This document shows, one piece after another, positions 15,339-32,522 of a stretch of 53,298 bases of DNA. Position 1 is the stretch's first letter. Each line of letters starts with the position of its first letter. Both the position numbers and the translations under genes were made by a program. Below the pieces are notes generated by a model that saw only the letters and a list, made by a program, of their open reading frames with translations, was not told where the DNA came from and did no database searches. The DNA comes from Myxococcota bacterium (lineage in GTDB: Bacteria; Myxococcota; XYA12-FULL-58-9): positions 1-53,298 of the forward strand of contig JAKLEG010000001.1 of NCBI GenBank assembly GCA_022703175.1. Reading direction: 5' to 3'.

Positions 15339-15385
15339 CGCTGAACCTCCTGCAGGCTTTGTGGGGTTCAGGATGACGTGGTTGT

Positions 15386-15403
15386 GTGACAACCAGGTGA
15401 CAA
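15386..15403 (-). promoter_or_regulatory. Pho-box-like direct repeat (TTGTCAC-N4-TTGTCAC) upstream of pstS
   Basis: The minus strand reads TTGTCACctggTTGTCAC: two identical 7-mers with an 11-bp period. They lie about 48 nt upstream of the pstS ATG, in the gap between the phoR stop (15417) and pstS. Geometry matches the E. coli PhoB box (CTGTCAT-N4-CTGTCAT). Confidence 0.5.
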
Positions 15404-15416
15404 GTCGGCAACGAGT

Positions 15417-17186
15417 TTAGCCGCGTGGCACCGTGAAGCTGAAGGTCGAGCCTTGGCCGACTTGGCTGTGCACCTGCACCTGGCCGCCCATGGCCAACAC
15501 ATAGTGGCGTACAATGGCGAGCCCGAGGCCGGTGCCACCCAACTCACGCGAGCGCCCCGGGTCAACACGGTAGAAGCGCTCGAACAGTCGGGGAAGATGC
15601 TGCGAGGCGATACCTGGGCCCGTATCGATGACAGAAAACTCAACAAAATCAGCAAGTAACACCGCCCTGACGGTGACACTCCCAGGCCCCGGGCCATACT
15701 TCAAGGCGTTGTCTACGAGGTTGCTCAACACCCGCTCAAAGGCTCGGGCATGCACGCGCATCGGCACGGCCACGGAGGTGGTCTCGTTAAAAAGTTGAAT
15801 GCCTTTGCTGCCGGCGCGCGCTTTAAAAGGTTCCAGGAGCTTTTGCACGGTGGCCTCGACCGGCAGGCTGTCGAGCACCAGCGGGTCGGCGGTGGCCTCG
15901 GCGCGGGAGAGCTCCAACAGATCGGCGACCAGCTGGCCCAAGCGGGTGGCATGCCGCCCGATCATTTCGGCACATTGTCGAGAGGCCTCAGGATCATGTC
16001 CTAAGCTCTGCTGTAGCGTCTCCGCGGCCGCGGCCAGGGTGGCGACCGGGGTACGCAACTCGTGCGAGGCGTTGGCGACAAAGTCCCGACGCACTTGCGT
16101 AGCTCGCAACAGCTCCGAGACATCCACACATACGCACAGCACCTCACCAGGCCTGCGCGTGGTGGGCACAGCACTAACGCGCAGCCACTGCGGCGGCGGC
16201 CCCGGGAGCTCCAACTCGGCACGCCCGGGGCTGCCGCTTTGGCGCACTTGGGCCACGAGCGTCTTGAGGGCCGGCAGGCGAACCACCTCTAGCAAGCTGC
16301 GCCCCACCACCGCGCCGTCTATTTGCAGCATGCCACCAAGGCCGGGATTCAAACGCACCACGGCATCGTATGGATCGAGCAGCAGCACCCCTTCTTGCAT
16401 CGTGTCCAAAATGCCGGCCAAGAGGTCCCGCTCACCGCGCAGCTCCAAGAGCGTCGCCGACAAGTTTGCGGCCAGTTGGTCCAACACCCGTCCCAGCTCG
16501 CCAAACTCATCGGCTTGGGTTACGCCGGTGCGACAGGCGAGGTCGCCCGCGGCCATGCGCTGAGCACTTTGAGTAAGGCGCTCGGCAGAGCGGGAGGCCA
16601 ACACGGCCGCAGCTGCCGTCAACACGACGGCAAACAGCAGTGCCATGGCACCCGCCAAGAGCAGGCTGCGATTTGCCACCCCCACCAGTCGTTCTACTTC
16701 GGTGAGCGGCAACGCCAAGCGCACCACACCGTGCTGATCGTTGTCGTCGTGGAAGGTTTGGGCCACGTAGAGCATCTGCGCGCCCAACGTATGGCTGCTG
16801 CGCAGGCTTTCGCCCACGCCGTTGTTGCGAGCCTGAACGATCTCAGGGCGCAGGGCGTGATTCTCCAGGTGTGCCACCTCTTGGACGGCCACAAGTGAAT
16901 CTCCTAACACGGTGCCGTCAGCGGCCAACAAGGTGACGCGGGCCTCGGCCTCACGCCCGAGCTCAAGGCTCAAGGCTTGCCACTTGGCCGCGTCATCGCG
17001 ACTCAAGCGCGCCTTGTCCACCGCCACCACGGCGAGCTTCGTGCGCCGATGTAAATCTTCGCGCAAACGCTCGGTCAGCAGCTGAGAGAGACGCGGCGTC
17101 AATAGCAGGCTTGCCACAAGCACTGTTGCGGCAATGAGCCCTAACGCCAACGCAAACAGCTTGGTGCGAATCCCCCAGCGGATCAC
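15417..17186 (-). CDS. phoR: phosphate-regulon sensor histidine kinase PhoR-like (two TM segments, ~145-aa extracytoplasmic loop, HAMP, PAS, HisKA, HATPase)
   Basis: H-box FVANASHELRTPV, N-box LSNLVDNALKY and G-boxes DTGPGI / GGTGLGLAIV. Overlaps the phoB stop by 4 bp and lies adjacent to pstSCAB. Confidence 0.85.
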   Translation of the reverse strand: MIRWGIRTKLFALALGLIAATVLVASLLLTPRLSQLLTERLREDLHRRTKLAVVAVDKARLSRDDAAKWQALSLELGREAEARVTLLAADGTVLGDSLVAVQEVAHLENHALRPEIVQARNNGVGESLRSSHTLGAQMLYVAQTFHDDNDQHGVVRLALPLTEVERLVGVANRSLLLAGAMALLFAVVLTAAAAVLASRSAERLTQSAQRMAAGDLACRTGVTQADEFGELGRVLDQLAANLSATLLELRGERDLLAGILDTMQEGVLLLDPYDAVVRLNPGLGGMLQIDGAVVGRSLLEVVRLPALKTLVAQVRQSGSPGRAELELPGPPPQWLRVSAVPTTRRPGEVLCVCVDVSELLRATQVRRDFVANASHELRTPVATLAAAAETLQQSLGHDPEASRQCAEMIGRHATRLGQLVADLLELSRAEATADPLVLDSLPVEATVQKLLEPFKARAGSKGIQLFNETTSVAVPMRVHARAFERVLSNLVDNALKYGPGPGSVTVRAVLLADFVEFSVIDTGPGIASQHLPRLFERFYRVDPGRSRELGGTGLGLAIVRHYVLAMGGQVQVHSQVGQGSTFSFTVPRG

Positions 17187-17878
17187 GAGTCGACCTTTGC
17201 AGGCGCTTGAAAGCGATAGCCAATGCCGCGCACCGTTTCGATGTAACTCCCCGCGACACCTAGTTTTTCGCGCAGACGCTTAATGTGGGTATCCACCGTA
17301 CGAGTGGTGATGTCGGCGTGAATCTCCCAAACGTCAGCCAACAAAACCTCGCGGCTTTGTACCCGCTCGCCGCGCTCATACAACGTAAGCAGGAGCTTGA
17401 ACTCCAGGGCCGTGAGGGGGACCTCGGTGCCCGCGACAATCACTCGGTGCGCGGCGCGCTCAAGGGTGAGCTCCCCCACCCTGATACACTCGGCGTCGGG
17501 GGGAGCTTGGCTTGTGCGCCTGAGCACCGCCTCAATGCGCAGCAGCAACTCGCGCACGCTGAACGGCTTGACCACGTAATCTTCGGCTCCCAGCTCAAAA
17601 CCCAACACCCGATCGATCTCTTCGCCTTTGGCGGTGAGGAACAGCACCGGAATGGCCTGGGTGCGCAGCTCGCGCTTCAATGCTTTGCAGACGTCGAGGC
17701 CCGAGCCATCGGGCAACATCAAGTCGAGCAGCAGCAACTGTGGCGGCGTACGACGGGCCTGGGCCAAACCAGCGGCGGCGGTGCCCGCACATTCTACCAG
17801 GTGGCCGGCCTGCCGCAGGTTGTAGGCAAGCAGCGTTTGTAGATCCGGCTCATCTTCGATCACCAGGATGCGGGCCAT
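17183..17878 (-). CDS. phoB: OmpR-family response regulator PhoB-like
   Basis: Receiver motifs MARILVIEDE, LLLLDLMLPD and KPF, followed by a winged-helix output domain (LTALEFKLL, RTVDTHIKRLREKL, VRGIGYRF). Confidence 0.85.
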   Translation of the reverse strand: MARILVIEDEPDLQTLLAYNLRQAGHLVECAGTAAAGLAQARRTPPQLLLLDLMLPDGSGLDVCKALKRELRTQAIPVLFLTAKGEEIDRVLGFELGAEDYVVKPFSVRELLLRIEAVLRRTSQAPPDAECIRVGELTLERAAHRVIVAGTEVPLTALEFKLLLTLYERGERVQSREVLLADVWEIHADITTRTVDTHIKRLREKLGVAGSYIETVRGIGYRFQAPAKVDS

Positions 17879-17989: not shown

Positions 17990-18262
17990 ATGACAAACCT
18001 GGATCTGATCCAGCGCGAGAACACTGTACTCCGCGACCAACTCGCCGCGTTGCGTACCCACCTGGCCAACGAACGAACCCTGTTGGCCTATGTACGCACG
18101 GGCCTCGCCTGTTTCGTCACCGGTTTGGGCGGCCTACATCTACTCGAATCGTCGGGGTGGCTCGTGGTGGCCTGGGGTTTGGTCGGCTGCGGCCCTACCC
18201 TTTGGGCATTCGGCGCGTGGCGCTTCGCGCGTTGTCGACGTCTGCTGGCGCAAACACCATGA
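17990..18262 (+). CDS. DUF202 (YidH-like) small membrane protein
   Basis: LANERTLLAYVRTGLA matches the DUF202 signature, followed by two more hydrophobic helices. 90 aa. Ends 61 bp upstream of the A2M operon. Confidence 0.6.
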   Translation: MTNLDLIQRENTVLRDQLAALRTHLANERTLLAYVRTGLACFVTGLGGLHLLESSGWLVVAWGLVGCGPTLWAFGAWRFARCRRLLAQTP

Positions 18263-18323
18263 GGGTTGGTCGTTGCCGCGACCTTACGGATCGTTTAGGG
18301 TTTTGCCACCCGGAGGGGTTCCC

Positions 18324-19220
18324 ATGACCGCGATGATTGCTCCGCTTCTTGCCGTGGTGCTTACGGCAGCGCCCGTCAATGATCGTCAAGTCGGCGTGCC
18401 CATTGGCAAAGGCACCACCAAGCCCAGAGTCACGCTCGCAGCGCCCGCTGGCGGCTGGACCATCGATCGCATGCTGCTCGTCAAAGGCAGTATCTCGGAC
18501 GTCACCGTCGACCCGGTGGTGGTGAGCATCAACGGCGATCGCTATTTGATGCGCACCTACAACGGCGAATTTTCCCGCAAGTTCCCCGCCGCTTCTGGTC
18601 GCAATGTGGTCACGGTGATGGCCACCAACAAAGGCGGCACCGGCAGCGCCCAAGCCACCACCTATGCTGAGATGCCACCCGTCCCTCTCAAGGCCGTGCT
18701 CACCTCTGACACCGACGGCGTCTACACCGACCTGCACATCTGGGAACCCACCGACGACTGCATGACCGCCGACGGTGCGTTAAACGTAAACTCGATGGCA
18801 CATGTCTATTGGGCCAACACCGACAGCCCCTCGGGCGGCACCTTCTTCTTAAATGAGCAGGGTGGCGACTTTGACCAGCCCGCCTACGGCCCCTACCTCT
18901 ACGTGCACCGCGCCCCGCCCAAAGGCATCTACCTCATCGCCACCAACTACTGGCCCTCAGGCGACAAAGCACACACCCTCGGCACGCTGAACCTGGTGCT
19001 CTACGAAGGCACACCGCAAGAAAGCAAACGCACCGTGCGCATCCCGCTCGCCACCCCAGGCACCACCCGCGTGCTCGCCTGGGTGAACGTGGTGGAACCA
19101 GGCAAAACCATGGTCTACGTCCCCGGCCAGGACCCGATGCCCCAGGGTAATGGCTGGCCCAACAACCTAGAAACCGCCACCCAAGCGCTCAATACCGACG
19201 GCGGTGACGGCGGTTACTAA
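18324..19220 (+). CDS. DUF2135/YfaP-like secreted protein (A2M-operon accessory)
   Basis: ORF 18090..19220. The ATG at 18324 is preceded by GGAGGGG and gives signal peptide MTAMIAPLLAVVLTAAP. YTDLHIWEPTDD...HVYWANTDSPSGG...AYGPYLY recalls the DUF2135 pattern. Genomic context with A2M supports the call. Confidence 0.5.
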   Translation: MTAMIAPLLAVVLTAAPVNDRQVGVPIGKGTTKPRVTLAAPAGGWTIDRMLLVKGSISDVTVDPVVVSINGDRYLMRTYNGEFSRKFPAASGRNVVTVMATNKGGTGSAQATTYAEMPPVPLKAVLTSDTDGVYTDLHIWEPTDDCMTADGALNVNSMAHVYWANTDSPSGGTFFLNEQGGDFDQPAYGPYLYVHRAPPKGIYLIATNYWPSGDKAHTLGTLNLVLYEGTPQESKRTVRIPLATPGTTRVLAWVNVVEPGKTMVYVPGQDPMPQGNGWPNNLETATQALNTDGGDGGY

Positions 19221-19324
19221 GTGCGATTGCGGGACAACCCAAGAACCACCATGCCACGAGAACATCGCAGTCGCATGCCGAACGGCGCCAGCGGACTTGA
19301 CGCCAAGCGAATCGACAATCCTCG

Positions 19325-19903
19325 ATGATGGCGGTCGCAACGATAGCGGTGGCACTGGTGGCGGTCCCCAACGAAGCGCTGTTGCGCGATGTCATCGTGC
19401 GCACGGCCCTCGCCCAAGCCCTCACCCCCGACCCCCATTGGGACCTAGCGCAGCGCGACTGCGCTGGCTTGATCCGTTTCAGCTATCGCGAGGCCTTTCG
19501 CACCCTGGCCCCAAAACAGCTGGACCTAGGCCTGTGGCACGACCGCACCGGCAAGCCGACGGCCTTTGCCGATGCTGAGACGCTGTTGGCCTACAACTTT
19601 ACATCCCTAGGTCGCGACGACGTCGCCCTCATGCACGTTCAAGGGGGCGATTTGCTCGCCTTCCGCCAAGTCGCAGGTCCCGACGAGCTTCCGGTTTATC
19701 ACCTGCTGCTGGCCGTGCGCAGCCGCGACAAAGCCAGCCACGAGTTGCAAGTTGTCTACCACCCCGGCCGTGCCGATGCCGTGGTTACCGTTGGCGCTCT
19801 CTCCGACCTCATCACTGAAGCCCCGCTTGAGTGGCATCCTGTTCCAGAAAACCCGGCCTTTCTAGGCTATTTCCGCCTTAACGAATGGATGAACCATGAC
19901 TGA
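19325..19903 (+). CDS. DUF1175/YfaT-like protein with NlpC/P60-type Cys motif (A2M-operon accessory)
   Basis: RDCAGLIRFSYREAF (Cys codon 19460-19462) followed by GDLLAF...VYHLLLAV...VVYHPG resembles the papain-like NlpC/P60 Cys...His...His layout. Size is about 190 aa. The stop overlaps the next start. Confidence 0.6.
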   Translation: MMAVATIAVALVAVPNEALLRDVIVRTALAQALTPDPHWDLAQRDCAGLIRFSYREAFRTLAPKQLDLGLWHDRTGKPTAFADAETLLAYNFTSLGRDDVALMHVQGGDLLAFRQVAGPDELPVYHLLLAVRSRDKASHELQVVYHPGRADAVVTVGALSDLITEAPLEWHPVPENPAFLGYFRLNEWMNHD

Positions 19904-21467
19904 ACCCAGCACTCCCAAACGCCCGACGTGGCTGTACATCATCATTGGGTTTTTGACCTTCGTGGTGGTGGCACTCGCCGTGGCCGCGCTGTTTGTGCAT
20001 TTGCGTCAGGGCGGATCTGGAAATGCTACCACCCCTGGCGACAGTGGCAGCACCACAACGTTGACCTCCGGTAGCGGCACCGCGGTTGAAGGTGTTCCTG
20101 AACCCACGGGCCCGGTGGCCATGGAAGTGCCCGACCTGCCACCGCGCGCCGCGGTAAGCGTGGACATCTACGATGCCGCGGGTTTAAAGGCGCTGTTTTC
20201 ACAAAACGTCTGGATGAAGGAGGTTCTCACCAAGCCGTTGGGCCAAGGCTTTGTCGGCTCGTGGGCCGGCTTCTTGGGCACGAAGGGCGAGGACTTGCGG
20301 GCAAGCTTTACTGGCACCGTCATCGATTTGTTGCTCGACCGCGTGCTCACGCAACCGTTCAGCGTGGTGTGGTTTAATGCGGCACATTCATCAGGCGTCC
20401 CGGCCGTGATCTTAGACGACCCCAACGGCGCCGCCAAAACGGCCTTCGAAGCTCTCGACACGGTGGCCGGCCGCGGCACCTTCACGGTAGAGCGTTGCCT
20501 CGCCGACAAGCCCGAAAATGTCGACGCCCAAAAACAAGTACGTGACCTAAAGGAACTTACGATCAAGCGCTGGTTGCTGGCCGACCACGCCCTCTACGCG
20601 GGCCTCGCGGGCGATCGCCTGGTCCTGGCCCGCAAAGCCTCCACGGTCCAAAATGGTCTGTGCGCGCAACGACCCAAGCTGCAACCTGCGCCAGGCGTGG
20701 CCATCACCGCGCGCCTTGAGCCCTCGGCCTTCAGCCGCGACGCCCAAGTCTTTGCCAGCGCCCTTGGCCTAAACCAGGGGCCCAACTTTGCCTTCGGCAT
20801 CGAAAACAACACATTGGTGCCGCGCGGCATCAGTGGCGACCTCGCCAACGCCGAGCGCTTGGTGAGCGGCAAGCTCTCCGGCGAAAACCTCAAAGCCATT
20901 CCAGAAGATGCACCGGTGGTGCTGGCGCTACAGCTGGCATTGCCCAAACAACTCGACCAAGACAACCTGGGCAGGTACTTCAAAGGCGAGAAATCAACGC
21001 TCACTCCGCGCCAAGTGGTGTTCGTCTGGTATCCCCACGGCGCCGTGCAAACCCCCGACCTGGCCATCTTGTGGTCGGAGAAAGCCGATAAAGCCGCGCT
21101 GGAAAGCCTGTTTGCGAGCAACCTCACCGTCGAAAACAGCCCCATCTGCGGCCAATTAGCGCTCACCTCCAACCCCACAATGACGAGCCGCATGCAAAAG
21201 AGCTGCAGCGGCAAAAGCCCCGCCATCACGCACCTCGCCGGCCCCGTGGTGAGTGGCCTGCAAGAGAACGCCTCGGTGCTATTGGGGGTCAACGTGGGCG
21301 CCCTGCTGACCCGCCTCACGACTGAATCGTTTGCCAGCGAAAATCCCAAGGCCACCTTGCCGCCCGAAATGCTCGAAGCCGAAAAACAACTCAAGGCGTT
21401 GCCGTTTATTGGGCTACGCGGCCTGATCCAAGGCCAAGCGCTGGTGCAAGGAGGGTTCCGCTCATGA
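19896..21467 (+). CDS. DUF2138/YfaA-like single-pass membrane-anchored protein (A2M-operon accessory)
   Basis: One N-terminal TM segment (WLYIIIGFLTFVVVALAVAALFV) and then about 480 aa predicted periplasmic. Assignment rests on size, topology and position immediately upstream of A2M with an ATGA overlap at 21464. No motif was verified. Confidence 0.4.
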   Translation: MTEPSTPKRPTWLYIIIGFLTFVVVALAVAALFVHLRQGGSGNATTPGDSGSTTTLTSGSGTAVEGVPEPTGPVAMEVPDLPPRAAVSVDIYDAAGLKALFSQNVWMKEVLTKPLGQGFVGSWAGFLGTKGEDLRASFTGTVIDLLLDRVLTQPFSVVWFNAAHSSGVPAVILDDPNGAAKTAFEALDTVAGRGTFTVERCLADKPENVDAQKQVRDLKELTIKRWLLADHALYAGLAGDRLVLARKASTVQNGLCAQRPKLQPAPGVAITARLEPSAFSRDAQVFASALGLNQGPNFAFGIENNTLVPRGISGDLANAERLVSGKLSGENLKAIPEDAPVVLALQLALPKQLDQDNLGRYFKGEKSTLTPRQVVFVWYPHGAVQTPDLAILWSEKADKAALESLFASNLTVENSPICGQLALTSNPTMTSRMQKSCSGKSPAITHLAGPVVSGLQENASVLLGVNVGALLTRLTTESFASENPKATLPPEMLEAEKQLKALPFIGLRGLIQGQALVQGGFRS

Positions 21468-24400
21468 TGCATCCAGAGAATCGCGGGTCGCTGCGGCAGA
21501 GCCGATACCCAGTGTTCGCCTTTGCCTTCGCCTCACTGACTCTGCTCACAAGCACCGCGTTCGCCAAACCAATCTACATCACGGTGCCCCGCTCCTATGG
21601 GACCCAAGAGCCCGTGGCCGTAGACGTGGCCTTCGCCGGCAACGAAGCGGTGGAGCTGCGGGTGCTCAAACCCAACAACCTCGACACCTACGTGCGCGAG
21701 CAGGCCAACCTGCGCCGCGCCTACGTTGCGCCCACCACCATCGTGAACCCCGGGCGACACTTGGCCCGCGGCCTGAATGCCGTGTCACATCCCGGTGAGT
21801 TCCTGCTGCGCGCGCTCGACCCGAGCTTCCGCAAAAATCTCTCGGGCACCATGCCGGCCATGCCCAGCCTGTCGGGGCGCGCACTCTCCGACTTGGATGA
21901 AGGCCAAGAGAAGCTCGTCAATATCCCTGTGGGGCTTGTGCTTGTGCGCTCCGAGTGGCTCAACCTGGATTTGGGTGGCACCGATCGCGGCTTTGACGTG
22001 CCCGGCTTTGACATGTGGAGCTCCTCCCGTTCTGGCTTCCAAGAGCGGCGTGTCACGCTCAAGCCGCTGCCCGCAGGCGTCTACGTGCTGCAACTCGTGC
22101 AAGGTCGGGTGGAAGGCCAAGTCACGCTGGTGGTGAGTGACCTTAGCGTGCAGCTCAAACAAACCGATGGCGAGATCTTGGTGCGCACCGCCGGACGTGA
22201 CCAAAAGCCTAGAAAAAACGCTGCCGTTCAAGTGTATCTCGGCGCCCAAGCCGGCCCCGGTGGCAAAACTGACGGCAACGGCGAGCTGCGCTTAAAGGTG
22301 AATGAGCCACGCTTGCTCGCGACCATCACCGACCAAGGGGACACCGCGGTCGTGGACACCGACTTCTACTCGACCTTGGCGGTGCAACCCGACGTGTTCA
22401 TCTACAGCGACCGGCCCATTTACAAGCCCGGAGATGAAATTCGCTTCCGCGGCTTGCTGCGCAAACCGGCGTCGTTCTTGGCGCAGCTATTTGCCCCCAA
22501 GGACCGCGACATGGTGGTGCGGCTTCTCACGAGCACCGGCCGCGAGATCAACACGCGCGCCAAGGTTGACGAGTTCGGTAGCTTTTACGGCAAGCTCGAT
22601 ATCCCCGACGATATCGAAACCGGCGTCGTGCGCCTGGCCGCCGAAATCGATGAGCACGACTACCAAAGCGAAGCGCGCGTGCAGGCATACGTCAAACCCA
22701 CCTTCTTTGTAGAAATGAGCACCGACCAAGATTCCATAAGCCCAGGCGACACCGTCACCGCCACGCTCAAAGCCCGCCGCTATGCGGGCGGTGTGCCGAA
22801 GGGGGCCAAGTACGAGGTGTTCTTGTATCGCACGCTGCTCACCACGCCCACCTGGGTGGACGACGCCGGTATGGGTGGGCAAGGGAGTGCGGTGACCTAC
22901 GGCACCGTGTCTACCAGCGAAGGCAAGTTGTCGGTGCCGCTCAAGCTGTATTCGAGCGTCGAGGCACGCGCAGGGACCAACAGCGAATTCAGCCACTATG
23001 ACCCTTGGGCCACCGCGGCGCTGTTCGATGACAAAGGTGAGGCCCAAATCAGCGTCGTGGTGCCGCCCTTGTCAGACGACGACAAAAAGGCGCGCCTGCC
23101 ATTCAAGTACACCCTCACGGTAAACGCCCAAGATCCCGAAGGCGCCAGCGCTGCCGTCAGCCGACCGTTCTACTACGGCGAATGCGACGTGCGTGCGCAA
23201 CTGGCCACCTCGCAAAGCTTCGTGATGCAAGACACCGAGGCCACGTTGTCCGTGCGCGCCATGACCCTTGCAGGACGCGGCTTCGGCGTGGCCCAAGGCG
23301 AAGTGCGTTACGTGCACCTAGATGCCGACGGCAAGTCGCACGAGCTGGGTAAGAAACCGTTTGCTACCGATGCCGATGGCATCTTCCGCGACCGCATCCC
23401 CACGAACAAGGTGGGCACGGTGCTTATGCAAGTGACGTTGCGCGACAAGAAAAACCGCGACACCGGCGACGAAACACGCCTGTTGGTGCTGGGCAAGGCG
23501 GGCGAAACAGTGGCCAAGGTGCCCGTGCTCACCGTGATGGCGCTGCCAAAACCAGTGGCACCCGGCGCCAAAGCTCAGCTGATTGCGTTGTTCCCAGATG
23601 GCTGGGGGCCCGCTGGCCAAAACCGCGGCTCGGTGTGGGTGACCACGAGTGGCAACGGCATCTACGACACTGAGCTTATGGAGGTCCAAGGCCAAAGCTT
23701 GGTGTACGAGTTTGAGGCCGAGCGCCGCTTTGGCAGCTCCGTGTACGCGGCCATTGCCTATCCCACCGCTAGCGGCCGTTGGGACGAACGCACGTTGGCG
23801 TTCCGTATCTTGGCCGAAGAACGCACCTTGCGCGTGCGCATCGAGCCGCAAAAGCCCGAACTGCCCCCCAACGCCGAGCAAACGCTGCAAATCAGCGTGG
23901 TAAATCACCAGGGCCAAGGTGTTACGGCACAGCTTTCAGTAGGCGTGGTGGACAAGGCGATCTACGCGCTACAGACCGAATTCCGCCCCAAAATCCTCGA
24001 TTTCTTCTACCCGCTCGTGCGCAACAACGTCATGAGCTTCTACTCTGCAGAGTTTCAAGGCTACGGCTACGGCGAAATGCTGGCGCGGCTGCGGGCCCGT
24101 ACCAAAGGGGCCGAGTTCGCCGCGGTAAAGCCGCCCAAGGTAAAACAAAAGGATGAGGACACCGCTTTCTGGCGTCCCAACGTGGTCACCGATGGCTCCG
24201 GCAACGCCCGCGTGACGTTCAAGCTACCCGGCAACAGCACCTTGTGGGTGGTCACGGCCGTGGCCGCCGACGCCGCAGGGCGCTTTGGCGAAGGCACCGC
24301 GGAGTTCCAAAGTCGCGCCGGACTTACGATGGTCGCAAGCATGCCGCAATTCTTGCGCGTGGGAGATACCGCGCAAGGCAGCGTGCGCTTAGCCACCGGC

Positions 24401-26215
24401 CCCAAAGAGAAAATCCGTAGCGTTGCCGTCGAGGTTGGTACCAGCGATGGGCTCAAAGCCGACACGGTTCATCAAAAGGTCGAGCTCAAAGCCAAAGACG
24501 AAGAGCTGGTGAGCTTCGCGCTCACTGCCAGTGCGGTTGGGCCCGGCAACATCGGCATGCGCCTGACCAGCGATGACGACACGCGCGTGGACAAGCGCAG
24601 CTTGCGCGTGCTGCCCGCAGCAGTGCCGGAGCGCGTCATGGTAAGCGCGTTGAATGGTGGCGAGCTGAAGCTACAACTCCCCAAGGGCGCCGAGGTCCAA
24701 GCGGTGGAGTTGACGCTCTTGCCCACCGCCATCGCCGCGGCCGTGGCGAGTGTACGCGATATGCTTACTTACCCTTACGGCTGCTTAGAACAATTGGTCG
24801 CCACCACGGTACCTAACATCGCGGTGGTGCGTACCCTGAAAACCGTGGGGGCCTTTGGCAAGCTCGACCCCGAATCGCAGGCGTTGCTCGAAGAGGCCAA
24901 CTCCAGAGCCGTGCAAGGGGTGCAGCGCATCCTCGCATTGGCCACGAAAGGCGGCGGTTTTACTTGGTTTTCTGGTTACGACGAAGCGAGCCTGCCGCTC
25001 ACGTTGATTGCCGTGGATGGCCTGACTTACGCGACCGAAGCGGGGCTTCTCGATCGCAACGATGCGCGGCTCACCGCTGGCGCTGCGTACCTCGCCAAAG
25101 CTGAAGACTTGCCGTTTGCGCTCGACGCCACGCGCACCTACGTCCTCGCACGTTTGAATGGCAAAGAGGAAGCGGCGCGGGTGCGGGCTCTCCTGGAGAA
25201 TGCGCCTGCGGATGATATCTACAGCACCGCGTTGGCCATTTTGGCCGCCGAGGCTGCCGATGCCCTGGCCGAAAACAGTCTCAAGGCACGGGTGACCACG
25301 CTTCTTCACCAAAACCAACAAAACCTGGCGCGGGTGGCCGACTACCGCTTGGACGATGCCTTTTGGCGCTACCCGATGTCGCGCGTAGGTTTGGGCGCAA
25401 TCGTCGCACATGCAGCCTCTCTGGGCAGCCGCGACCTCCCCACAGCGCGCACCCGTTTCATCAACGCACTGGGCGACTTGGGCAATGTCTCCACGTTCGA
25501 CCAAAGCACGTTGTTGCTGCACAACTTGTGGCTGCTCACCGAAGAAGCCAAAGCACTGGGTGCGCTCACGCCACCTGCGGTGGAAACCAGCCAGGGCAAG
25601 GTGACCCTCAAACCCCGTGGCACCGGCCTATACGCCACGCTCGACAAAGCCGCCCAGAGCGCCAAGGTGGCTAGCTTCGACGGCGTTGCCATGCTCACGG
25701 CTGACGTGCTGTTGCCGCTAAGTGAGGTAGTACCGAAAGCCCAGGGCATGAGCCTCAAGCGTAGCTATTGGCTCGTGCGCCCCGACGGCCGCGAGCCGCT
25801 CAAGGATGGGGATACAGTGACGCAGGGTCAAATGGTCTTCGTAGAATTGGAGCTCGACGCCGACAGCGACGATTGGCGCAGCTCCCGCCGCTCGGCCTAC
25901 TACGTGCTCGAAGACGCGCTCCCGGCCGGCTTTGAGCCGATGATTGAAGACAAAAAGTGGCGCGCCAAACCCTACGATTTGCCGCTCACGCATGAAGCAC
26001 TCAAGCAACGCGCGCTGTCCCCCGACAAGGCGCGTTTCTTTTTTGAGGAGCCCGCAATCTGGAGCCGCTCGCCGCGCAGCATCGGCTACCTGATGCGCGC
26101 GCAGTTCCCAGGCACCTACGCCATCCCGCCGGCCCGCGTGACTGACATGTATGCCCCCAAAATCACAGCACAAACCGGTGCTGCAACCCTGTCTATCCGG
26201 GCATCCAAGAAGTAG
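21464..26215 (+). CDS. bacterial alpha-2-macroglobulin family protein (1583 aa) with CLEQ thioester motif
   Basis: MG-domain signature DRPIYKPGDEIRFRGLLR. Thioester block LTYPYGCLEQLVATT (C-L-E-Q = 24782..24793). C-terminal receptor-domain-like YYVLEDALPAGFEP. The signal peptide ends TSTAFA-KP with no lipobox Cys. Confidence 0.9.
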   Translation: MMHPENRGSLRQSRYPVFAFAFASLTLLTSTAFAKPIYITVPRSYGTQEPVAVDVAFAGNEAVELRVLKPNNLDTYVREQANLRRAYVAPTTIVNPGRHLARGLNAVSHPGEFLLRALDPSFRKNLSGTMPAMPSLSGRALSDLDEGQEKLVNIPVGLVLVRSEWLNLDLGGTDRGFDVPGFDMWSSSRSGFQERRVTLKPLPAGVYVLQLVQGRVEGQVTLVVSDLSVQLKQTDGEILVRTAGRDQKPRKNAAVQVYLGAQAGPGGKTDGNGELRLKVNEPRLLATITDQGDTAVVDTDFYSTLAVQPDVFIYSDRPIYKPGDEIRFRGLLRKPASFLAQLFAPKDRDMVVRLLTSTGREINTRAKVDEFGSFYGKLDIPDDIETGVVRLAAEIDEHDYQSEARVQAYVKPTFFVEMSTDQDSISPGDTVTATLKARRYAGGVPKGAKYEVFLYRTLLTTPTWVDDAGMGGQGSAVTYGTVSTSEGKLSVPLKLYSSVEARAGTNSEFSHYDPWATAALFDDKGEAQISVVVPPLSDDDKKARLPFKYTLTVNAQDPEGASAAVSRPFYYGECDVRAQLATSQSFVMQDTEATLSVRAMTLAGRGFGVAQGEVRYVHLDADGKSHELGKKPFATDADGIFRDRIPTNKVGTVLMQVTLRDKKNRDTGDETRLLVLGKAGETVAKVPVLTVMALPKPVAPGAKAQLIALFPDGWGPAGQNRGSVWVTTSGNGIYDTELMEVQGQSLVYEFEAERRFGSSVYAAIAYPTASGRWDERTLAFRILAEERTLRVRIEPQKPELPPNAEQTLQISVVNHQGQGVTAQLSVGVVDKAIYALQTEFRPKILDFFYPLVRNNVMSFYSAEFQGYGYGEMLARLRARTKGAEFAAVKPPKVKQKDEDTAFWRPNVVTDGSGNARVTFKLPGNSTLWVVTAVAADAAGRFGEGTAEFQSRAGLTMVASMPQFLRVGDTAQGSVRLATGPKEKIRSVAVEVGTSDGLKADTVHQKVELKAKDEELVSFALTASAVGPGNIGMRLTSDDDTRVDKRSLRVLPAAVPERVMVSALNGGELKLQLPKGAEVQAVELTLLPTAIAAAVASVRDMLTYPYGCLEQLVATTVPNIAVVRTLKTVGAFGKLDPESQALLEEANSRAVQGVQRILALATKGGGFTWFSGYDEASLPLTLIAVDGLTYATEAGLLDRNDARLTAGAAYLAKAEDLPFALDATRTYVLARLNGKEEAARVRALLENAPADDIYSTALAILAAEAADALAENSLKARVTTLLHQNQQNLARVADYRLDDAFWRYPMSRVGLGAIVAHAASLGSRDLPTARTRFINALGDLGNVSTFDQSTLLLHNLWLLTEEAKALGALTPPAVETSQGKVTLKPRGTGLYATLDKAAQSAKVASFDGVAMLTADVLLPLSEVVPKAQGMSLKRSYWLVRPDGREPLKDGDTVTQGQMVFVELELDADSDDWRSSRRSAYYVLEDALPAGFEPMIEDKKWRAKPYDLPLTHEALKQRALSPDKARFFFEEPAIWSRSPRSIGYLMRAQFPGTYAIPPARVTDMYAPKITAQTGAATLSIRASKK

Positions 26216-26257
26216 GCGGCCCCCGATCAAACAGTCGCCGCCGGGGTTGTACCTATT

Positions 26258-28465
26258 GTGACTTGGCTTACGCTTTGGCTGCTCCTTAGCGCACCTCCTG
26301 AGTTCATCGCGGGGGAAGGCGTCGCTGTAGAGCCGGAGTTGTTGACCCTGGCCCACGACAGTTGGGCGGAGCTTGCGCGCCTGTTTGTCCAAGCCACTGG
26401 CAGCGATGCGCAGTCGCCTACCCTCGTTCGTTTGGAGACGCTGCCGCCTGGGGCTCGTTTGGGCGGCGCTTCGGAGCTGGGCCGCATCAGGTTGCACCCA
26501 GCCTTGTTGACGCGGCGCGACCCTAACCTCGGGCTGGTGTTAAAACATGAGCTGGCGCACCAACTGTTGTTGGTGAGCTGCCCCGCGGCGACTGATGATC
26601 GCTTATTTCATGAGGCGTTTGCTGTAGCCGCAAGCGGCGAGCTTGGCGCCTGGGTCGATGGACCCTATCTGTCGACCCCGCAGGCGGCACGTTTGTTGAG
26701 CCAAAGCCAGGAGCTCGACACTCCCGATCGCCGCCGGGCATTGAGTCGCCTGTTGAGCGAGAGTGAACCCGATGTGGGTGGCCTGCCCAAGGTGCTGCGT
26801 CGCCGATTGAACGCCTGCGCGAGCCACGCACGCTGGCAACAACCGCTCACCGTGGCGGAGCTAACCGCCGGAAACGCAACAGAGACTGCCGATGCCTGGC
26901 TGGTATTAAATCGCCACTCGGGCGAAGTGTTGGAGAGCCGCGGCGCGGCCAACTTGCCGATGCCGTTTGGTTCAATCCTCAAACCGTTCGTCGCCGCCGC
27001 GGGCGTCGCTGCGCCTAGCCTAGCCACTGAGCCGAGCCGCGACGTTTGGGCCTGCGGCGACGCGCTACCCAAAACCATGGGGCTGAAAGAAGCGCTGAGC
27101 CGCTCCTGCAATGGCTATTTCCTCGACTGGAACGATCCGGTGGCGCGCACGTTTGGCAGCTTTGGCCCGTTATTTCTGGCGTTGGGGCTGAGCCGCTTGC
27201 CACACGAAATGGCCGAAGCCATTGGCGCCAAACCGACGCTCACGTTATCGCCGTGGGCCGTGGCGCAGGCGTACCGCACGTTGGCGCTTTCGCGTCCAGA
27301 TGTCATGACATGGCTGCAGCGCACCGCCCAGGTAGGCACACTCAAAGGGCTGCCCAGCTCAGCTGCACTTATGCGCTTCAGCGTCAAAACAGGTACGGTG
27401 CGCGACGCTAGCTCCAAACCACGCGTCGGTTGGCTCGTGGCGGTGACTCCTGACCTGGTGGCGGTGATGACCCAACACGAACGCGTGCCCCGCGAGTTTG
27501 CCGACGAATTTCTGGTCGCCTTGCAAGGCTTTGTCGAGCGCCGATCAGAACTCGCCGTCACCACTCAGGTTTTTGGACTTGTGCCGAGTGCCCAGGTGCA
27601 AGCTGAGTGCCGCGGGATTGGCGTGGTGGCCACTGCAACGTTGCAGCTGCTTGAAGCACAATCGCAGTCGCTTGTAAGCGCCGTGGAGCGTGGGCCCTTG
27701 TTATGCCTGGGGGCACCCTGGCTGATTCAGTTCCCCAAAAGCATCGCGCTCGCCAGGCAATATGCCGGCAGCTTTTCACTTTTGCCCTTGCCCCCGCCCA
27801 CGGTACAGGCGCCGGGCACGGCCAAACAACAACGGGCTCGGCGGGGCTCGGAGCTGGCCTTCACCACATCGCTTGCGCGTTATGCCGTAGGTGTCGTGAG
27901 GTCCGAGGATGCCTCGGCCAAGGGCGAGGCGCGCACCGCGCTGTTGCAGGTGGCGGCTCACAACGTTTTTCACAGTCGCCACCCCGAGCGCCCCGTGTGT
28001 GACACGACCCATTGTCAGGTGTTTCTGGGCACAGTCGCCCCAGAGCCGCGCGACACCGAAAGCCTCGCCAAGGACTGGCTCGTCGAGTTGGGTTGGCTGC
28101 TGTTCTCGCAAGGGGGCGAGGAAGCATGGCATGCGTCACGGTCACTGGGGAGTGTGACGGCGCTCTTGGGTGAAAACCCTTCGAACCTGCATTTCGATGG
28201 TGAGCGGGTCTATTACCAACGCACCGTAAAACATGGCGACAGCCTGGTGGATGAGGCGGCAAGCCTGTCGTGCGAGTTGCTGCGCAGCCCGTTGCGCTTA
28301 CCTAGCTGCCCAACGCAGGCCACGTTCACACCTGAGCAGGTGGAATTTTCGGGTCGCGGCAAGGGGCACGGCCAAGGGTTGGACGTAGAGTGGGCCAAGC
28401 GAAGCGGGTTGGATGCGAAGGCAATTCTGCACACCGCGTATGGGGCGCTTGCGAAAGAGGACTAA
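26258..28465 (+). CDS. A2M-operon terminal gene (YfaQ/DUF2300 position): HExxH motif + penicillin-binding (SxxK/SxN/KTG) transpeptidase-like domain + SpoIID-like domain
   Basis: GTG start at 26258. KHELAH at 26546-26560. PFGSILKPF (SILK 26972-26983). ALSRSCNGYF (SCN 27104-27112). SVKTGTV (KTG 27386-27394). CDTTHCQVF (27998-28018). GRGKGHGQG...ILHTAYG near the C-terminus (His 28367). Confidence 0.6.
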   Translation: MTWLTLWLLLSAPPEFIAGEGVAVEPELLTLAHDSWAELARLFVQATGSDAQSPTLVRLETLPPGARLGGASELGRIRLHPALLTRRDPNLGLVLKHELAHQLLLVSCPAATDDRLFHEAFAVAASGELGAWVDGPYLSTPQAARLLSQSQELDTPDRRRALSRLLSESEPDVGGLPKVLRRRLNACASHARWQQPLTVAELTAGNATETADAWLVLNRHSGEVLESRGAANLPMPFGSILKPFVAAAGVAAPSLATEPSRDVWACGDALPKTMGLKEALSRSCNGYFLDWNDPVARTFGSFGPLFLALGLSRLPHEMAEAIGAKPTLTLSPWAVAQAYRTLALSRPDVMTWLQRTAQVGTLKGLPSSAALMRFSVKTGTVRDASSKPRVGWLVAVTPDLVAVMTQHERVPREFADEFLVALQGFVERRSELAVTTQVFGLVPSAQVQAECRGIGVVATATLQLLEAQSQSLVSAVERGPLLCLGAPWLIQFPKSIALARQYAGSFSLLPLPPPTVQAPGTAKQQRARRGSELAFTTSLARYAVGVVRSEDASAKGEARTALLQVAAHNVFHSRHPERPVCDTTHCQVFLGTVAPEPRDTESLAKDWLVELGWLLFSQGGEEAWHASRSLGSVTALLGENPSNLHFDGERVYYQRTVKHGDSLVDEAASLSCELLRSPLRLPSCPTQATFTPEQVEFSGRGKGHGQGLDVEWAKRSGLDAKAILHTAYGALAKED

Positions 28466-29331: not shown

Positions 29332-29413
29332 GCGGCGAGACTAGAGAGTTGAGCTGTGCGAGTCAATCTGGGTGTCGCCCATTTGGCGGTTGACACATGC
29401 TCACGGGTGGATA

Positions 29414-29438
29414 TAATGAACAAAGAGTCATTATTCAT
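29414..29438 (+). promoter_or_regulatory. candidate TetR operator / 25-nt repeat copy 1 (TAATGA-N8-TCATTA + TTCAT)
   Basis: TAATGAACAAAGAGTCATTATTCAT abuts the tetR ATG. It has 6-bp inverted arms with an 8-nt spacer, and 19/25 positions are identical to 30066..30090. Confidence 0.35.
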
Positions 29439-30046: not shown

Positions 30047-31525
30047 ATGCCGAGCAGTTTAGTTAAAATGACAAACGCTTCATTATTCATTTCAGTTCTG
30101 ACACTGCCTGGGTTGGCAAGCGCCCAAGAGCTGAGCCTGGCCGATGCGGTGACCCAAGCACTCACCCACAACGAGGCGCTGCGCCAAGCCGACTTGCGGC
30201 TCGAAACCAAAAGCGACGAGGCCGGCGCCGCCCTGGGTAACTTCCTGCCCACGATTTCGATCACGGGCGCCTACTCGCACTTGGATGACCCGCTCATCAT
30301 CAACTTGGACCCAATCCGGGATGGCATGATCCAACTGCAATCCCAAAACATGACCGAGTTCGCCAACAGCTACACCGTCATGCAAGGCGGCGCCCCCTTG
30401 AGCGCCGAACAACGCGCAGGCCTCACGAGCCAAAACGCCGCCAAGCTCGACGCCGTCATGCCACACTTCGAAAAAACCCTGAAAGAACAAGACAGCGTCA
30501 CCATCACCCTCACCGCAGTGCAACCGCTTTTCACCGGCGGCAAACTGTACGCCGGACTTATGGCCGCCAAAGCCGAAGAACGCGCAGCCCAGGCCGACAA
30601 AGAACGCACCCAAAACGAAGTCGTACGCGAAGCCATCAACAACTATCTGGCGGTGGCACTGCTGAACCAAGTGCTGGAAGTGCGCCAAGCCGTGCTCGTA
30701 GGCATGCAAAGCCATCGCGATGACGCCCTCAAACTCAAAGCCACCGGACTCATTGCCGAAGTGCAGGTGCGCCGCGCCGAAGTCGCCGTGGCCGAGGCCG
30801 AGCGCGCGCTCTTAGATGACTCACTCAAACAAGAGCTGGCCATGCTTTCACTCAAGCGCACGTTAGGACTACCCGAAACCGCGCCCCTTGTCGTACGCGA
30901 GCGCCTGAGCTTTCACCCCTACAGCACCGCATTGGCGGATTGCCTGCAAGAAGCGCAGGCCACCCAGCCGCTGTTGAAATTGGTCGACGCCAAAGCCTTG
31001 GCCGTGGCGCAAAAGGTGGTGGCAAGCCGCGCCGAATTCTTGCCACAGGTGGCCGCGTTCGGCCGCTATGAGCTGTACCGCAAAGATCTGTCGGCCCTCG
31101 ACCCGAACTGGGTGGTGGGTGCACAACTTTCCATCAACCTGTTTTCGGGCCTGAAGGATTATCACCGCGTCAGCGCCGCCGAACACCAAGCCGCCGAAGT
31201 GGCAAGCCTGCGCGCCGATACCGAACGCAGCCTGTCGTTGTGGGTCAACCGCGCGCATCGAGATGCCGAAGGGGCCGCTAGCCGTTTCCAAAAACTCGAT
31301 GCCAACCGGACCCTCGCAACCGATGCCCTGCGCTTGTCCGAAGAGCGTTTCCACAGTGGCTTTGGCACGTCACTCGAAGTGGTGGACGCCCGTCTGGCGG
31401 CCCAGCGCATCGACGTCGACCGCCTGTTGGCGCTGTTTGATTACTATCGGGCACTCAGCGACCTAACCGTCGCGATGGGTCACCCGGAACGCCTCGTGTC
31501 CCTCTTTGCGGCTTTGGAGAACTAA
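30047..31525 (+). CDS. TolC-family outer-membrane efflux protein
   Basis: Signal peptide ...LPGLASA-QE. Two OEP repeats with typical coiled-coil heptads and Y/L-rich turns (YYRALSDL at the end). Operon context. An alternative start at 30068 is possible. Confidence 0.85.
   Translation: MPSSLVKMTNASLFISVLTLPGLASAQELSLADAVTQALTHNEALRQADLRLETKSDEAGAALGNFLPTISITGAYSHLDDPLIINLDPIRDGMIQLQSQNMTEFANSYTVMQGGAPLSAEQRAGLTSQNAAKLDAVMPHFEKTLKEQDSVTITLTAVQPLFTGGKLYAGLMAAKAEERAAQADKERTQNEVVREAINNYLAVALLNQVLEVRQAVLVGMQSHRDDALKLKATGLIAEVQVRRAEVAVAEAERALLDDSLKQELAMLSLKRTLGLPETAPLVVRERLSFHPYSTALADCLQEAQATQPLLKLVDAKALAVAQKVVASRAEFLPQVAAFGRYELYRKDLSALDPNWVVGAQLSINLFSGLKDYHRVSAAEHQAAEVASLRADTERSLSLWVNRAHRDAEGAASRFQKLDANRTLATDALRLSEERFHSGFGTSLEVVDARLAAQRIDVDRLLALFDYYRALSDLTVAMGHPERLVSLFAALEN
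30066..30090 (+). promoter_or_regulatory. 25-nt repeat copy 2 (AATGA-N8-TCATT + ATTCAT) at the 5' end of the TolC-like gene
   Basis: AAATGACAAACGCTTCATTATTCAT shares 19/25 positions with copy 1, including an identical 11-mer TCATTATTCAT. It overlaps the alternative start ATG at 30068. Confidence 0.3.
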
Positions 31526-31529
31526 AACC

Positions 31530-32522
31530 ATGAACAAAAAGACCATTATTTTCCTGTTGTTACCGATTAGTGCCGCGCTCACCGCCGGAGCCGTATTGGC
31601 GCGCCAAGCGGCGGCCACAGGCCCCGAGGTGATCACCGGCACCGTCGAGACCACCGAAATCGACTTGGGCTCCAAGGTGCCCGGTCGCGTGGCAGAGGTC
31701 CGGGTGCACGAAGGCGACCCAGTGAAACGCGGGGAGGTGCTGGCGGTGATTGCGAGCCCAGAGCTCGAAGCCAAAGTTGCCCAAGCGAAAAGCGTGGTCG
31801 AAACCGCGCAGGCCAAAGCCCGGTTGGTTACAAAGGGCGCACGCAGCGAAGAGCGCGAGGCAGCGCTGCGCTTGTATCTGCAAGCCAAGCATGGCGCCGA
31901 CCTAGCGCAAAAGACGTTTGTGCGCGTGGAGTCGATGTTCAAGGCGGGTGTGCTCTCCGAGCAAGAACGCGATCAGGCATTCACGCAGGCCGAAGCCGCC
32001 CGCGAACAGATGGATGCTGCCAAGGCCAAAGCCGATATGGCCGAACATGGTGCCCGCGCCGATGAGATCTTGGCCGCCCAGGCCGCCTTGCGCCAAGCCG
32101 AAGGCGCCTTGGCCGAGGTGGAGTCGTATCAGCGCGAGCTGAACCTCGTAAGCCCGTTGGATGCCGTGGTGCGCGAGCGCATTGTCGACCCCGGTGAGCT
32201 GGTGGCCACTGGTTACCCCGTGTTGACGCTGTTGGATTTGAACGACGCCTGGGTGGTGTTGCAACTACGCGAAGATCGCTTGGCGGGTATCAAGCAAGGT
32301 GACGCGCTCACGGGCGTGGTGCCAGCGTTGGGCAACAAGGCGGTGCATTTCACGGTGAGCCAAATCGCGGCGATGGCCGATTTTGCCACCTGGCGGCCGA
32401 CTCACCAAAAAGGTGAGTTCGACCTGCGTACCTTTGAAGTTCATCTCCGCCCCGATGCACCGGTTCCCGGTTTGTTGGGTGGCATGACCGTCAATGTCGA
32501 GTTGGCTGCACGCGCGGAGTAG
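31530..32522 (+). CDS. HlyD/YbhG-type membrane fusion (periplasmic adaptor) protein
   Basis: ATG at 31530 after GGAGA. TM anchor, lipoyl-like GRVAEVRVHEGDPVKRGEVLAVI, a long coiled-coil hairpin, and beta-barrel VSPLDAVV...VDPGELV. Confidence 0.85.
   Translation: MNKKTIIFLLLPISAALTAGAVLARQAAATGPEVITGTVETTEIDLGSKVPGRVAEVRVHEGDPVKRGEVLAVIASPELEAKVAQAKSVVETAQAKARLVTKGARSEEREAALRLYLQAKHGADLAQKTFVRVESMFKAGVLSEQERDQAFTQAEAAREQMDAAKAKADMAEHGARADEILAAQAALRQAEGALAEVESYQRELNLVSPLDAVVRERIVDPGELVATGYPVLTLLDLNDAWVVLQLREDRLAGIKQGDALTGVVPALGNKAVHFTVSQIAAMADFATWRPTHQKGEFDLRTFEVHLRPDAPVPGLLGGMTVNVELAARAE

Follow-up and report, generated by a model that had tools for sequence, protein, structure and literature searches.

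Bacterial alpha-2-macroglobulins (A2Ms) have been described as two types, which are told apart by their thioester and by the operon in which they are found (PMC5764988). Type I A2Ms have the thioester, are lipoproteins and are paired with the penicillin-binding protein (PBP) PBP1c, whereas type II A2Ms lack the thioester and belong to the Mag/Yfa operon (PMC5764988). Here we analyse a cluster of five genes around an A2M in DNA of a Myxococcota bacterium (assembly GCA_022703175.1, contig JAKLEG010000001.1, positions 1–53,298; this whole stretch of 53,298 nucleotides is called the window below), which an earlier note, made from the sequence alone, had assigned to the Yfa/Mag type. The cassette pairs a type I-like thioester with type II-like helper genes and with a three-domain protein that resembles cell-wall enzymes, and we believe that it probably represents a third architecture of bacterial A2M systems, distinct from the two described types.

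In Pseudomonas, the type II operon encodes, in order (PMC3735191, Table 2, and BLAST), MagA (COG4676, YfaP-like), MagB (COG4685, DUF2138, with a transmembrane (TM) segment), MagC (COG3234, DUF1175), MagD, which is the A2M, MagE (COG5445, YfaQ-like) and MagF (COG4676, YfaP-like). The magABCDEF genes of P. aeruginosa are PA4492–PA4487, and the E. coli order is yfaA-yfaT-yfaS-yfaQ-yfaP. MagB anchors and stabilises MagD, to which MagA and MagF bind 1:1 (PMC5764988, PMC3735191). The mag operon shields P. aeruginosa from VgrG3 and Tae1, peptidoglycan-targeting type VI secretion system (T6SS) effectors, by a mechanism that is unexplained (PMC12663445). No third class of A2M is described in the Dessen/Attree papers or in the 2025 T6SS paper, which together form the basis of this statement (the survey of Budd et al., 2004, lies outside it), and literature searches that combined Myxococcus with macroglobulin and thioester, or the DUF names with one another, returned nothing relevant.

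The A2M combines a type I motif with a type II mode of export

The A2M gene (gene 4, 21464–26215, + strand) encodes a protein of 1583 aa, recognised by its Pfam domains, its translation and sequence matches in the PDB to E. coli YfhM and insect TEP1. Pfam finds MG2 (residues 310–398), the bait-region domain A2M_BRD (697–836), A2M (900–975), TED (1083–1195) and bMG10 (1428–1565), which bears out the identification as an A2M in the earlier note. At its N-terminus the protein has a Sec signal peptide (aa 1–34, ...LTSTAFA↓KPIY) with no lipobox Cys, and the A2M orthologues in related cassettes likewise begin with a signal peptide that lacks a lipobox. The thioester motif C-L-E-Q is present (24782–24793, + strand; Cys1107–Gln1110 in the translation and alignment), with YPYGCLEQ at residues 1102–1110 and GCLEQ at 1106–1110. 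The A2M of the window therefore appears, from its sequence, to combine the chemistry motif of type I with the export mode of type II.

The motif GC[LVIA]EQ was found in all eight A2Ms of cassettes like this one. For comparison, a set of 80 Yfa/Mag loci was gathered from Escherichia, Pseudomonas and their relatives, and seven type II A2Ms from this set were examined; in every one Gly replaces the thioester Cys, giving GG[VI]. The surrounding residues read YPYGGVEQ in Pseudomonas type II proteins and EPWGGVIN in E. coli YfaS, as against YPYGCLEQ in YfhM. The MagD proteins of Pseudomonas type (L008, L026, L028 and L056) keep the whole thioester context except for the Cys, and in the YfaS proteins of enterobacterial type (L003, L006 and L052, including Escherichia) the context has diverged further. 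Because the context is kept in Pseudomonas and has diverged further in enterobacterial YfaS, the comparison suggests that type II A2Ms lost the thioester by a single Cys-to-Gly change, with decay afterwards.

Overall similarity places the protein with neither type. Summed bit scores of the window A2M were 620–720 against the A2Ms of distant cassettes, ~160–230 against type II proteins and ~160 against E. coli YfhM, to which its best high-scoring segment pair (HSP) reaches 44 bits. Type I and type II A2Ms score ~100–160 summed bits against each other, which is of the same order as the distance of the window A2M from each. An initial reading of single best HSPs, by which the protein was clearly nearer to type II, was overturned by the summed scores, which put it about equally far from both types. 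Because of this equidistance, we assign the window A2M, on sequence, to a group of its own outside types I and II.

A conserved five-gene cassette

Gene boundaries were taken from an open reading frame (ORF) listing and from direct reading of the junction sequences. Five genes on the + strand encode, in order, a YfaP/MagA/MagF-like secreted protein of 298 aa (gene 1, 18324–19220), a DUF1175/MagC/YfaT-like protein of NlpC/P60 type and 192 aa (gene 2, 19325–19903), a bitopic membrane protein of 523 aa (gene 3, 19896–21467), the A2M and, from a GTG start, a three-domain protein of 735 aa (gene 5, 26258–28465). The ATG of gene 1 at 18324 has a GGAGGGG ribosome-binding site ahead of it. Genes 2 and 3 share an 8-bp overlap, ATGACTGA, genes 3 and 4 share a 4-bp overlap, ATGA, with GGAGGG ~10 nt 5' of the A2M start, and the A2M gene is followed by a 42-bp gap before gene 5. 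The layout given in the earlier note, five + strand genes with these two overlaps and this gap, agrees with both the ORF map and the junction reads. A consensus scan of the cluster found no terminator-like signals above shuffle expectation; promoter consensus matches inside it did not exceed that expectation either, and the 42-bp gap and a 104-bp spacer between genes 1 and 2 fold no better than shuffles (z −1.1 and −0.9 respectively). No Rfam family or tRNA was found in the window. The five genes probably form an envelope operon whose members are translationally coupled.

The same arrangement was found in five other Myxococcota loci, those of Myxococcus hansupus (L002, CP012109), Archangium minus (L085), two Myxococcota metagenome-assembled genomes (MAGs; L084 and L086) and one Joint Genome Institute (JGI) contig. 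In each, genes for a YfaP-like protein, a MagC-like protein, a protein of ~510–560 aa, an A2M of ~1560–1580 aa and a protein of ~730–750 aa follow one another with junctions that overlap or abut, and the flanking genes differ from locus to locus. The four of these loci whose A2M sequence was read (all but the JGI contig) encode A2Ms with GC[LVI]EQ and the signal cleavage context AxA↓KPLY. When three second-tier proteins of the 523-aa family (see below) were traced to their loci, more distant cassettes emerged on three contig types (L087, L088/L089 and L090; GC values 74%, 42% and 55%), which have the same five-gene order and other flanks. Over the full length, the A2Ms of these cassettes share 29–33% identity with the window A2M (620–720 bits), and their thioester motif reads GC[AV]EQ; the products of the last genes are 27–32% identical to the 735-aa protein. 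The two complete distant last genes keep HELAH, SCN, KTG and CD[ST]THCQVF, and the partial last gene of L087, of which only the C-terminal part is covered, has SCN and KTG.

Because the same order and junctions recur in other loci with differing flanks, the five-gene arrangement is not due to chance, and the five-gene cluster described around the A2M is confirmed as a real and conserved unit. Since the thioester cassette recurs in five Myxococcota loci and on three distant contig types, these comparisons argue that it is an old, separate and widespread lineage and not a recent mosaic. The term mosaic, which the earlier note had used of the two A2M classes, remains apt as a description of traits; as a statement about recombination it does not fit a separate lineage whose A2M is equidistant from both.

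In M. hansupus (L002, 12344–19189), three genes for trypsin-like serine proteases lie directly 3' of the cassette, an arrangement not seen in the other eight loci. Their presence may point to a means by which the organism is protected from proteases of its own.

The 735-aa protein resembles cell-wall enzymes

The product of gene 5 was modelled with AlphaFold2 (AF2; predicted local distance difference test, pLDDT, 91.5; predicted template modelling score, pTM, 0.86), and the invariance of its motifs was judged in an alignment of 111 sequences. Its N-terminal domain (aa 1–205, 26258–26872, + strand) contains invariant H97-E98-x-x-H101 and E119, that is HExxH-x17-E, a spacing like that of gluzincins. 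It bears a faint resemblance to the SprT-like, M78 and DUF6782 metallopeptidase models, and a profile search of PDB sequences gave no relative. We take these ~200 residues to be a predicted zincin-like domain of orphan status.

The second domain (~aa 206–430, 26873–27547, + strand) is identified from the AF2 model, Foldseek and motifs as a predicted PBP transpeptidase fold with its predicted active-site motifs intact. Foldseek against the PDB returned PBP1b, PBP3, PBP1a and PBP5/6 at probability 1.0, with E-values down to 2e-8. The invariant residues are S239-x-x-K242, S283-C-N285 and K377 with G379 of the KTG motif (K377-T-G379 in the window protein). In an hhalign alignment to E. coli PbpC, GSILKPFV, SCN and KTGT of the window protein align with GSVLKPFV, SLN and KTGT. 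No GT51/Transgly domain was found in the 735-aa protein at E ≤ 10 in Pfam.

A beta-rich linker (~aa 431–515) leads into a SpoIID-like domain (~aa 516–735; the two together 27548–28465, + strand), which is identified by a PDB profile match and a weak Pfam match. SpoIID structures were the sole sequence matches of the C-terminal profile in the PDB, with an E-value of 0.011 and both signature blocks aligned. E550, C581-D-T, H585-C586 and G699-x-G-x-G-H-G-x-G707 are invariant, and T584 and Q587 nearly so (the CDTTHCQ block). The SpoIID/LytB lytic transglycosylases of Clostridioides difficile and Bacillus anthracis (PDB 5i1t, 5txu, 4rwr) have like blocks, Y-x-x-G-V-V-x-x-E, which holds the conserved Glu, and G-x-G-H-G-x-G. 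Unlike SpoIID, the window domain is fused to two catalytic-looking domains and lies in an A2M operon, with no sporulation or SpoIIP/SpoIIM context. The Pfam SpoIID model gave a weak match in 24 of 30 orthologues; in L090 (1e-8, 36 bits) and L088 (6e-5, 24 bits) the homologous last gene passes the cut-off, and NCBI names many of the orthologues 'SpoIID/LytB domain-containing protein'.

The protein has at least 176 relatives at 90% clustering. Among the best 120 of these, nearly all are full-length and of similar size, with 42–52% identity and one close relative at 87%; the named relatives among those listed are all from Myxococcota.

The 735-aa protein and YfaQ/MagE

The DUF2300 model, that of the family encoded after the A2M in the Mag/Yfa operon, scores 303 bits on E. 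coli YfaQ, our control. It matched neither the window protein (E ≤ 10) nor any of 30 orthologues, and BLASTP between the window protein and YfaQ gave nothing significant. E. coli YfaQ (L001, 3149–4798) itself matches Pfam SpoIID (7e-6) beside two DUF2300 stretches, and the YfaQ/MagE family has invariant GS[LV]WK, SCGLYF, VKTW, GWL, EEYVARVLxREA and THEYLH. When 3265 ORFs of Yfa/Mag loci were searched with a hidden Markov model (HMM) of the 735-aa family, the only matches beyond its own M. hansupus orthologue were YfaQ/MagE orthologues, the best at E 7e-4 over the SxxK…SC[NG]YF region. The reverse search with YfaQ placed the cassette last genes on top and matched YfaQ's C-terminal THEYLH region to the N-terminal HELAH domain (E 0.04–0.5). 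Hhalign gave 28% for the two families and, at relaxed settings, 37% (E 3.6e-4), in one collinear alignment of 447 columns that joins SxxK, SCN/SCG, KTG/KTW, GWL, the SpoIID Glu block and the C-terminal block.

We conclude that the 735-aa protein and YfaQ/MagE are probable, though unproven, homologues at a very great distance, of which the 735-aa protein is the better preserved. By its motifs, YfaQ/MagE looks like a decayed PBP-fold and SpoIID protein with the HExxH module at the other end; such a description of YfaQ/MagE was not found in the A2M literature cited here. The alternative that the gene after the A2M is a counterpart of magF was considered and rejected, as BLAST and COG assignments make MagE the YfaQ homologue and MagF a second YfaP paralogue (PMC3735191).

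The 523-aa protein defines a family without a Pfam model

In the AF2 model of the gene 3 product (pLDDT 91.1), a TM helix (~aa 11–37) is followed by a disordered Gly/Ser/Thr linker (~38–80) and a periplasmic alpha/beta domain (85–523). The protein has no match in Pfam or NCBIfam, DUF2138 included, even at E ≤ 10, and an NCBIfam scan of six window proteins gave no match. The DUF2138 model scores 968 bits on E. coli YfaA, used as a control, and matched neither the window protein nor its M. hansupus orthologue nor ten distant members of the family; BLASTP between the 523-aa protein and YfaA found nothing significant.

A word-indexed search gave six relatives, and the same six close relatives, with nothing further, were obtained when it was repeated with a family alignment of 69 sequences. 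An exhaustive profile search of 1.84 billion representatives gave 150 representatives of the family. A first tier comprises ~50 full-length orthologues; a second tier consists of proteins of 440–570 aa that are 17–23% identical and that hhalign joins to the first tier at 100%. Second-tier members are named from Bdellovibrionaceae, Pseudobdellovibrionaceae and Bdellovibrionales MAGs (Bdellovibrionota) and from a Thermoanaerobaculia MAG (Acidobacteriota). None of the members tested has a Pfam match. In the four loci looked up (L087–L090), the family occurs only within such cassettes.

An HMM of the family, searched against the Mag/Yfa loci, gave MagB orthologues as top non-self matches (E 0.007–0.4), and the reverse search of the cassette loci with a YfaA HMM gave no match. 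An attempt to reach DUF2138 by way of the family's distant half failed, with an hhalign probability of 0.1%. Because the profile links to DUF2138 are inconsistent, we treat the 523-aa protein as an analogue of MagB/YfaA in position and topology, and at most as a possible homologue.

The sole probable fold match to the periplasmic domain is Treponema pallidum TP0453 (PDB 3k8j; Foldseek probability 0.99, E 1.4e-3). With a TM-score of 0.40 on the target, coverage of about half of the domain and 12% identity, this match justifies no functional inference.

Genes shared with the Mag/Yfa operons, and the flanks of the cassette

Genes 1 and 2 have clear relatives in E. coli. The gene 1 product has a C-terminal DUF2135/YfaP_C domain (Pfam 4.3e-7, 30.4 bits, cut-off 22) and an N-terminal Ig-like domain resembling Glucodextran_B (Pfam 1.8e-5), and it matches YfaP in BLASTP (6e-11), as expected for the secreted DUF2135-like protein foreseen in the earlier note. 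The gene 2 product, foreseen as DUF1175/NlpC-P60-like, proved so by both Pfam (DUF1175, 2.1e-26) and BLASTP to YfaT (2e-18). Its DCAGL Cys is kept (Cys46, nt 19460–19462), and the D-C-A-G-L and His columns are invariant in the alignment. The N-terminus of the gene 2 product is a short uncharged hydrophobic stretch, MMAVATIAVALVAVP, with no canonical signal peptide; its start site or its export route may differ.

The gene that lies 61 bp ahead of gene 1, a distance that the junction reading bears out, encodes a small membrane protein of 90 aa (17990–18262, + strand), and its identification as DUF202 was upheld by Pfam (7e-13). Because none of the five other Myxococcota loci has a DUF202 gene upstream of the cassette, we regard this gene as a neighbour outside the conserved cassette; it may be co-transcribed with the cassette here.

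On the − strand, a complete Pho-type block (window 10544–17878) is transcribed away from the A2M cluster. It contains a gene (10544–11665) that joins PhoU and low-molecular-weight phosphotyrosine phosphatase domains in one protein, an unusual PhoU–LMWPc fusion, together with pstB, two pst permease genes and a PstS-like binding protein (pstSCAB and phoU), a histidine kinase of 589 aa (15417–17186) and an OmpR-type response regulator (17183–17878). Just 111 bp separate the start of the response regulator gene from that of DUF202. On the 3' side, the cluster is followed by a convergent methyltransferase gene and then by a TetR/efflux operon. A perfect 12/12 sigma-70 consensus (TTGACA, 16 nt, TATAAT) at 29390–29417 (+ strand) overlaps the first ATG (29397) of the TetR-family ORF, which precedes an OEP/HlyD/ABC-2 efflux operon (30047–33678). 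Because of this overlap, either the TetR ORF probably starts downstream of 29397 or its transcript is leaderless.

A possible trap-and-repair system

We consider it probable that the locus is a distinct third architecture of bacterial A2M systems, a five-gene envelope operon for which we infer a trap-and-repair function. The A2M would be exported to the periplasm. In Myxococcota the 523-aa bitopic protein would tether it to the inner membrane, on the model of P. aeruginosa MagB, and the YfaP-like protein would decorate it, on the model of MagA and MagF. An incoming or mislocalised protease would then cut the bait region, and the GCLEQ thioester thereby exposed would cross-link the protease, as in the type I proteins ECAM and Sa-A2M. 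The MagC-like protein, of amidase/endopeptidase type, and the three-domain enzyme would act on peptidoglycan at the same site, trimming damaged wall and re-crosslinking it through peptide cleavage, DD-transpeptidase/carboxypeptidase chemistry and glycan-strand cleavage. Such wall repair would be the role assigned to PBP1c in type I systems, and it would match the effect, as yet unexplained, by which the mag operon protects from T6SS effectors that target peptidoglycan.

Several observations weigh against this interpretation. The formation of the thioester, the trapping of proteases, membrane anchoring and enzymatic activity are predictions from sequences and models. In Pfam, the 735-aa protein of the window scores 15.3 bits for Transpeptidase, against a cut-off of 22.1, and 15–17 bits for SpoIID, against a cut-off of 23, and its homology to YfaQ/MagE rests on hhalign values of 28–37% and on HMMER matches whose E-values, obtained in small databases, lie between 7e-4 and 0.5. 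The resemblance of the 523-aa protein to MagB/YfaA is one of position and topology, and homology is not demonstrable: hhalign to DUF2138 proteins gave 1% for an alignment of 7 sequences, 41% for one of 69 and 0.1% when the distant tier was used by itself. In second-tier members of this family, cleavable-looking signal peptides replace the TM helix and the Gly/Ser/Thr linker of the Myxococcota proteins. Because these distant members carry signal peptides and no TM helix, membrane anchoring is not general in the family. Finally, genes 1 and 2 are set apart by a spacer of 104 bp (19221–19324), which the earlier note did not mention; the corresponding distances in relatives are overlap/0, 10, 15, 29 and 77 bp.

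Comparison with type II and type I systems

The locus might instead be a divergent type II Yfa/Mag operon that works like MagABCDEF, with the 523-aa and 735-aa proteins as fast-evolving orthologues of the DUF2138 and DUF2300 proteins. Like type II, the cassette has several envelope genes grouped in an operon around an A2M of ~1550 aa, which is exported by a signal peptide and is not a lipoprotein. It shares a YfaP/MagA/MagF-like gene (COG4676, DUF2135) and a YfaT/MagC-like gene (COG3234, DUF1175), a single-TM protein of ~520–590 aa upstream of the A2M (~520 aa here) and, directly downstream of it, a secreted protein with a SpoIID or SpoIID-like domain, as in E. coli and Pseudomonas. Also in favour, MagB and MagE orthologues are, beyond self, the top matches of the two family HMMs in Mag/Yfa loci, and hhalign reaches 41% for the 523-aa and 37% for the 735-aa protein.

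However, the loss of the thioester Cys that defines type II, where Gly stands in its place, has not occurred in the window A2M, and the distance from this A2M to type II is no smaller than that between types I and II. Neither DUF2138 in the TM protein nor DUF2300 in the downstream protein could be detected, no member tested of either family having matched these models, and hhalign found nothing to connect YfaA with the more distant half of the 523-aa family (probability 0.1%). Unlike its type II counterpart, the downstream protein has intact SxxK/SxN/KTG motifs and an N-terminal HExxH domain and is ~190 aa longer. The gene order also differs, YfaP-MagC-TM-A2M-X here as against (YfaP)-TM-MagC-A2M-YfaQ-YfaP in type II: the TM and MagC genes (genes 3 and 2) are swapped, the TM gene adjoins the A2M gene, and the single YfaP-like gene of the cassette leaves no second YfaP paralogue to close the operon.

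We therefore consider a type II operon an unlikely explanation. The match to the Yfa/Mag gene set that the earlier note had proposed stands for the YfaP-like and MagC-like genes and is not supported for the DUF2138 and DUF2300 placements. A TM-anchored protein of ~520 aa does precede the A2M and a 735-aa multi-domain protein does follow it, as that note had said, and neither matches the family named for its position at E ≤ 10. Profile searches thus failed to place two of the four accessory proteins, those of 523 and 735 aa, in the Yfa/Mag-associated families, an outcome that the note itself had counted against its assignment. With the thioester present and the order of the DUF1175 gene and the gene in the DUF2138 position inverted, full membership of type II is not borne out.

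The main functional alternative is that the cassette serves chiefly in peptidoglycan remodelling or self-protection and not in defence against foreign proteases. The A2M would then be a scaffold, or an inhibitor keeping in check lytic enzymes of the cell itself, such as the MagC-like and three-domain enzymes, or secreted proteases of the predator that leak into its own periplasm. Two of the five proteins are cell-wall-enzyme-like with their catalytic motifs intact, the members with a name are mostly from Myxococcota and Bdellovibrionota, both predatory lineages, and the three trypsin-like protease genes after the M. hansupus cassette would suit such a role. However, protease genes adjoin the cassette in only one of nine loci, and classical protease trapping is what the conservation of the bait-region domain and the thioester suggests. 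We consider this reading unlikely.

With the type I systems (E. coli ECAM/YfhM and Salmonella Sa-A2M, with pbpC) the cassette shares the MG/BRD/TED/bMG10 domain set, CLEQ in an identical YPYGCLEQ context, and a downstream gene for a class-A-like PBP transpeptidase fold with catalytic motifs that align with those of E. coli PbpC. Unlike type I, it has three further accessory genes, and its transpeptidase fold is flanked by zincin-like and SpoIID-like domains. That it is a type I (ECAM/YfhM–PBP1c-like) system with extra genes, or a recent type I/type II recombinant, is highly improbable, as the A2M lacks the lipobox Cys and lipoprotein anchor (YfhM has LALAGC), the downstream protein lacks GT51, similarity to YfhM is low (44-bit best HSP, ~160 bits summed) with no A2M segment close to either class, and the cassette is old and widespread, with 29–33% A2M identity across lineages of GC 42–74%.

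Implications

If the locus is a third architecture, as we believe, a further and more tentative proposal can be made about its history. The cassette could be an ancestral-like, fully armed A2M 'periplasmic immune' machine, in which a thioester-dependent covalent trap is in physical contact with a peptidoglycan repair enzyme of three functions (zincin, DD-transpeptidase and lytic transglycosylase) and with an NlpC/P60 enzyme; YfaQ/MagE would be decayed versions of that repair enzyme, and predators (Myxococcota, Bdellovibrionota) would use the machine to make themselves immune to the lytic arsenals of competitors as well as to their own. We regard this as possible. If true, it would explain mechanistically, for all three operon types, how A2Ms are connected with cell-wall repair.

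The combination of a thioester A2M with Mag-like partners and a downstream enzyme with intact motifs breaks the two-type dichotomy of bacterial A2Ms. Because the motifs of that enzyme are intact, they suggest concrete biochemical roles for YfaQ/MagE as a degenerate PBP-fold and SpoIID protein, and the cassette thereby speaks to the standing question of what the accessory proteins of the Mag/Yfa operon do. The analysis also defines two protein families, those of the 523-aa and 735-aa proteins, that lie beyond current Pfam and NCBIfam models. Myxococcus offers a genetically tractable host in which trapping and wall repair may be studied together.

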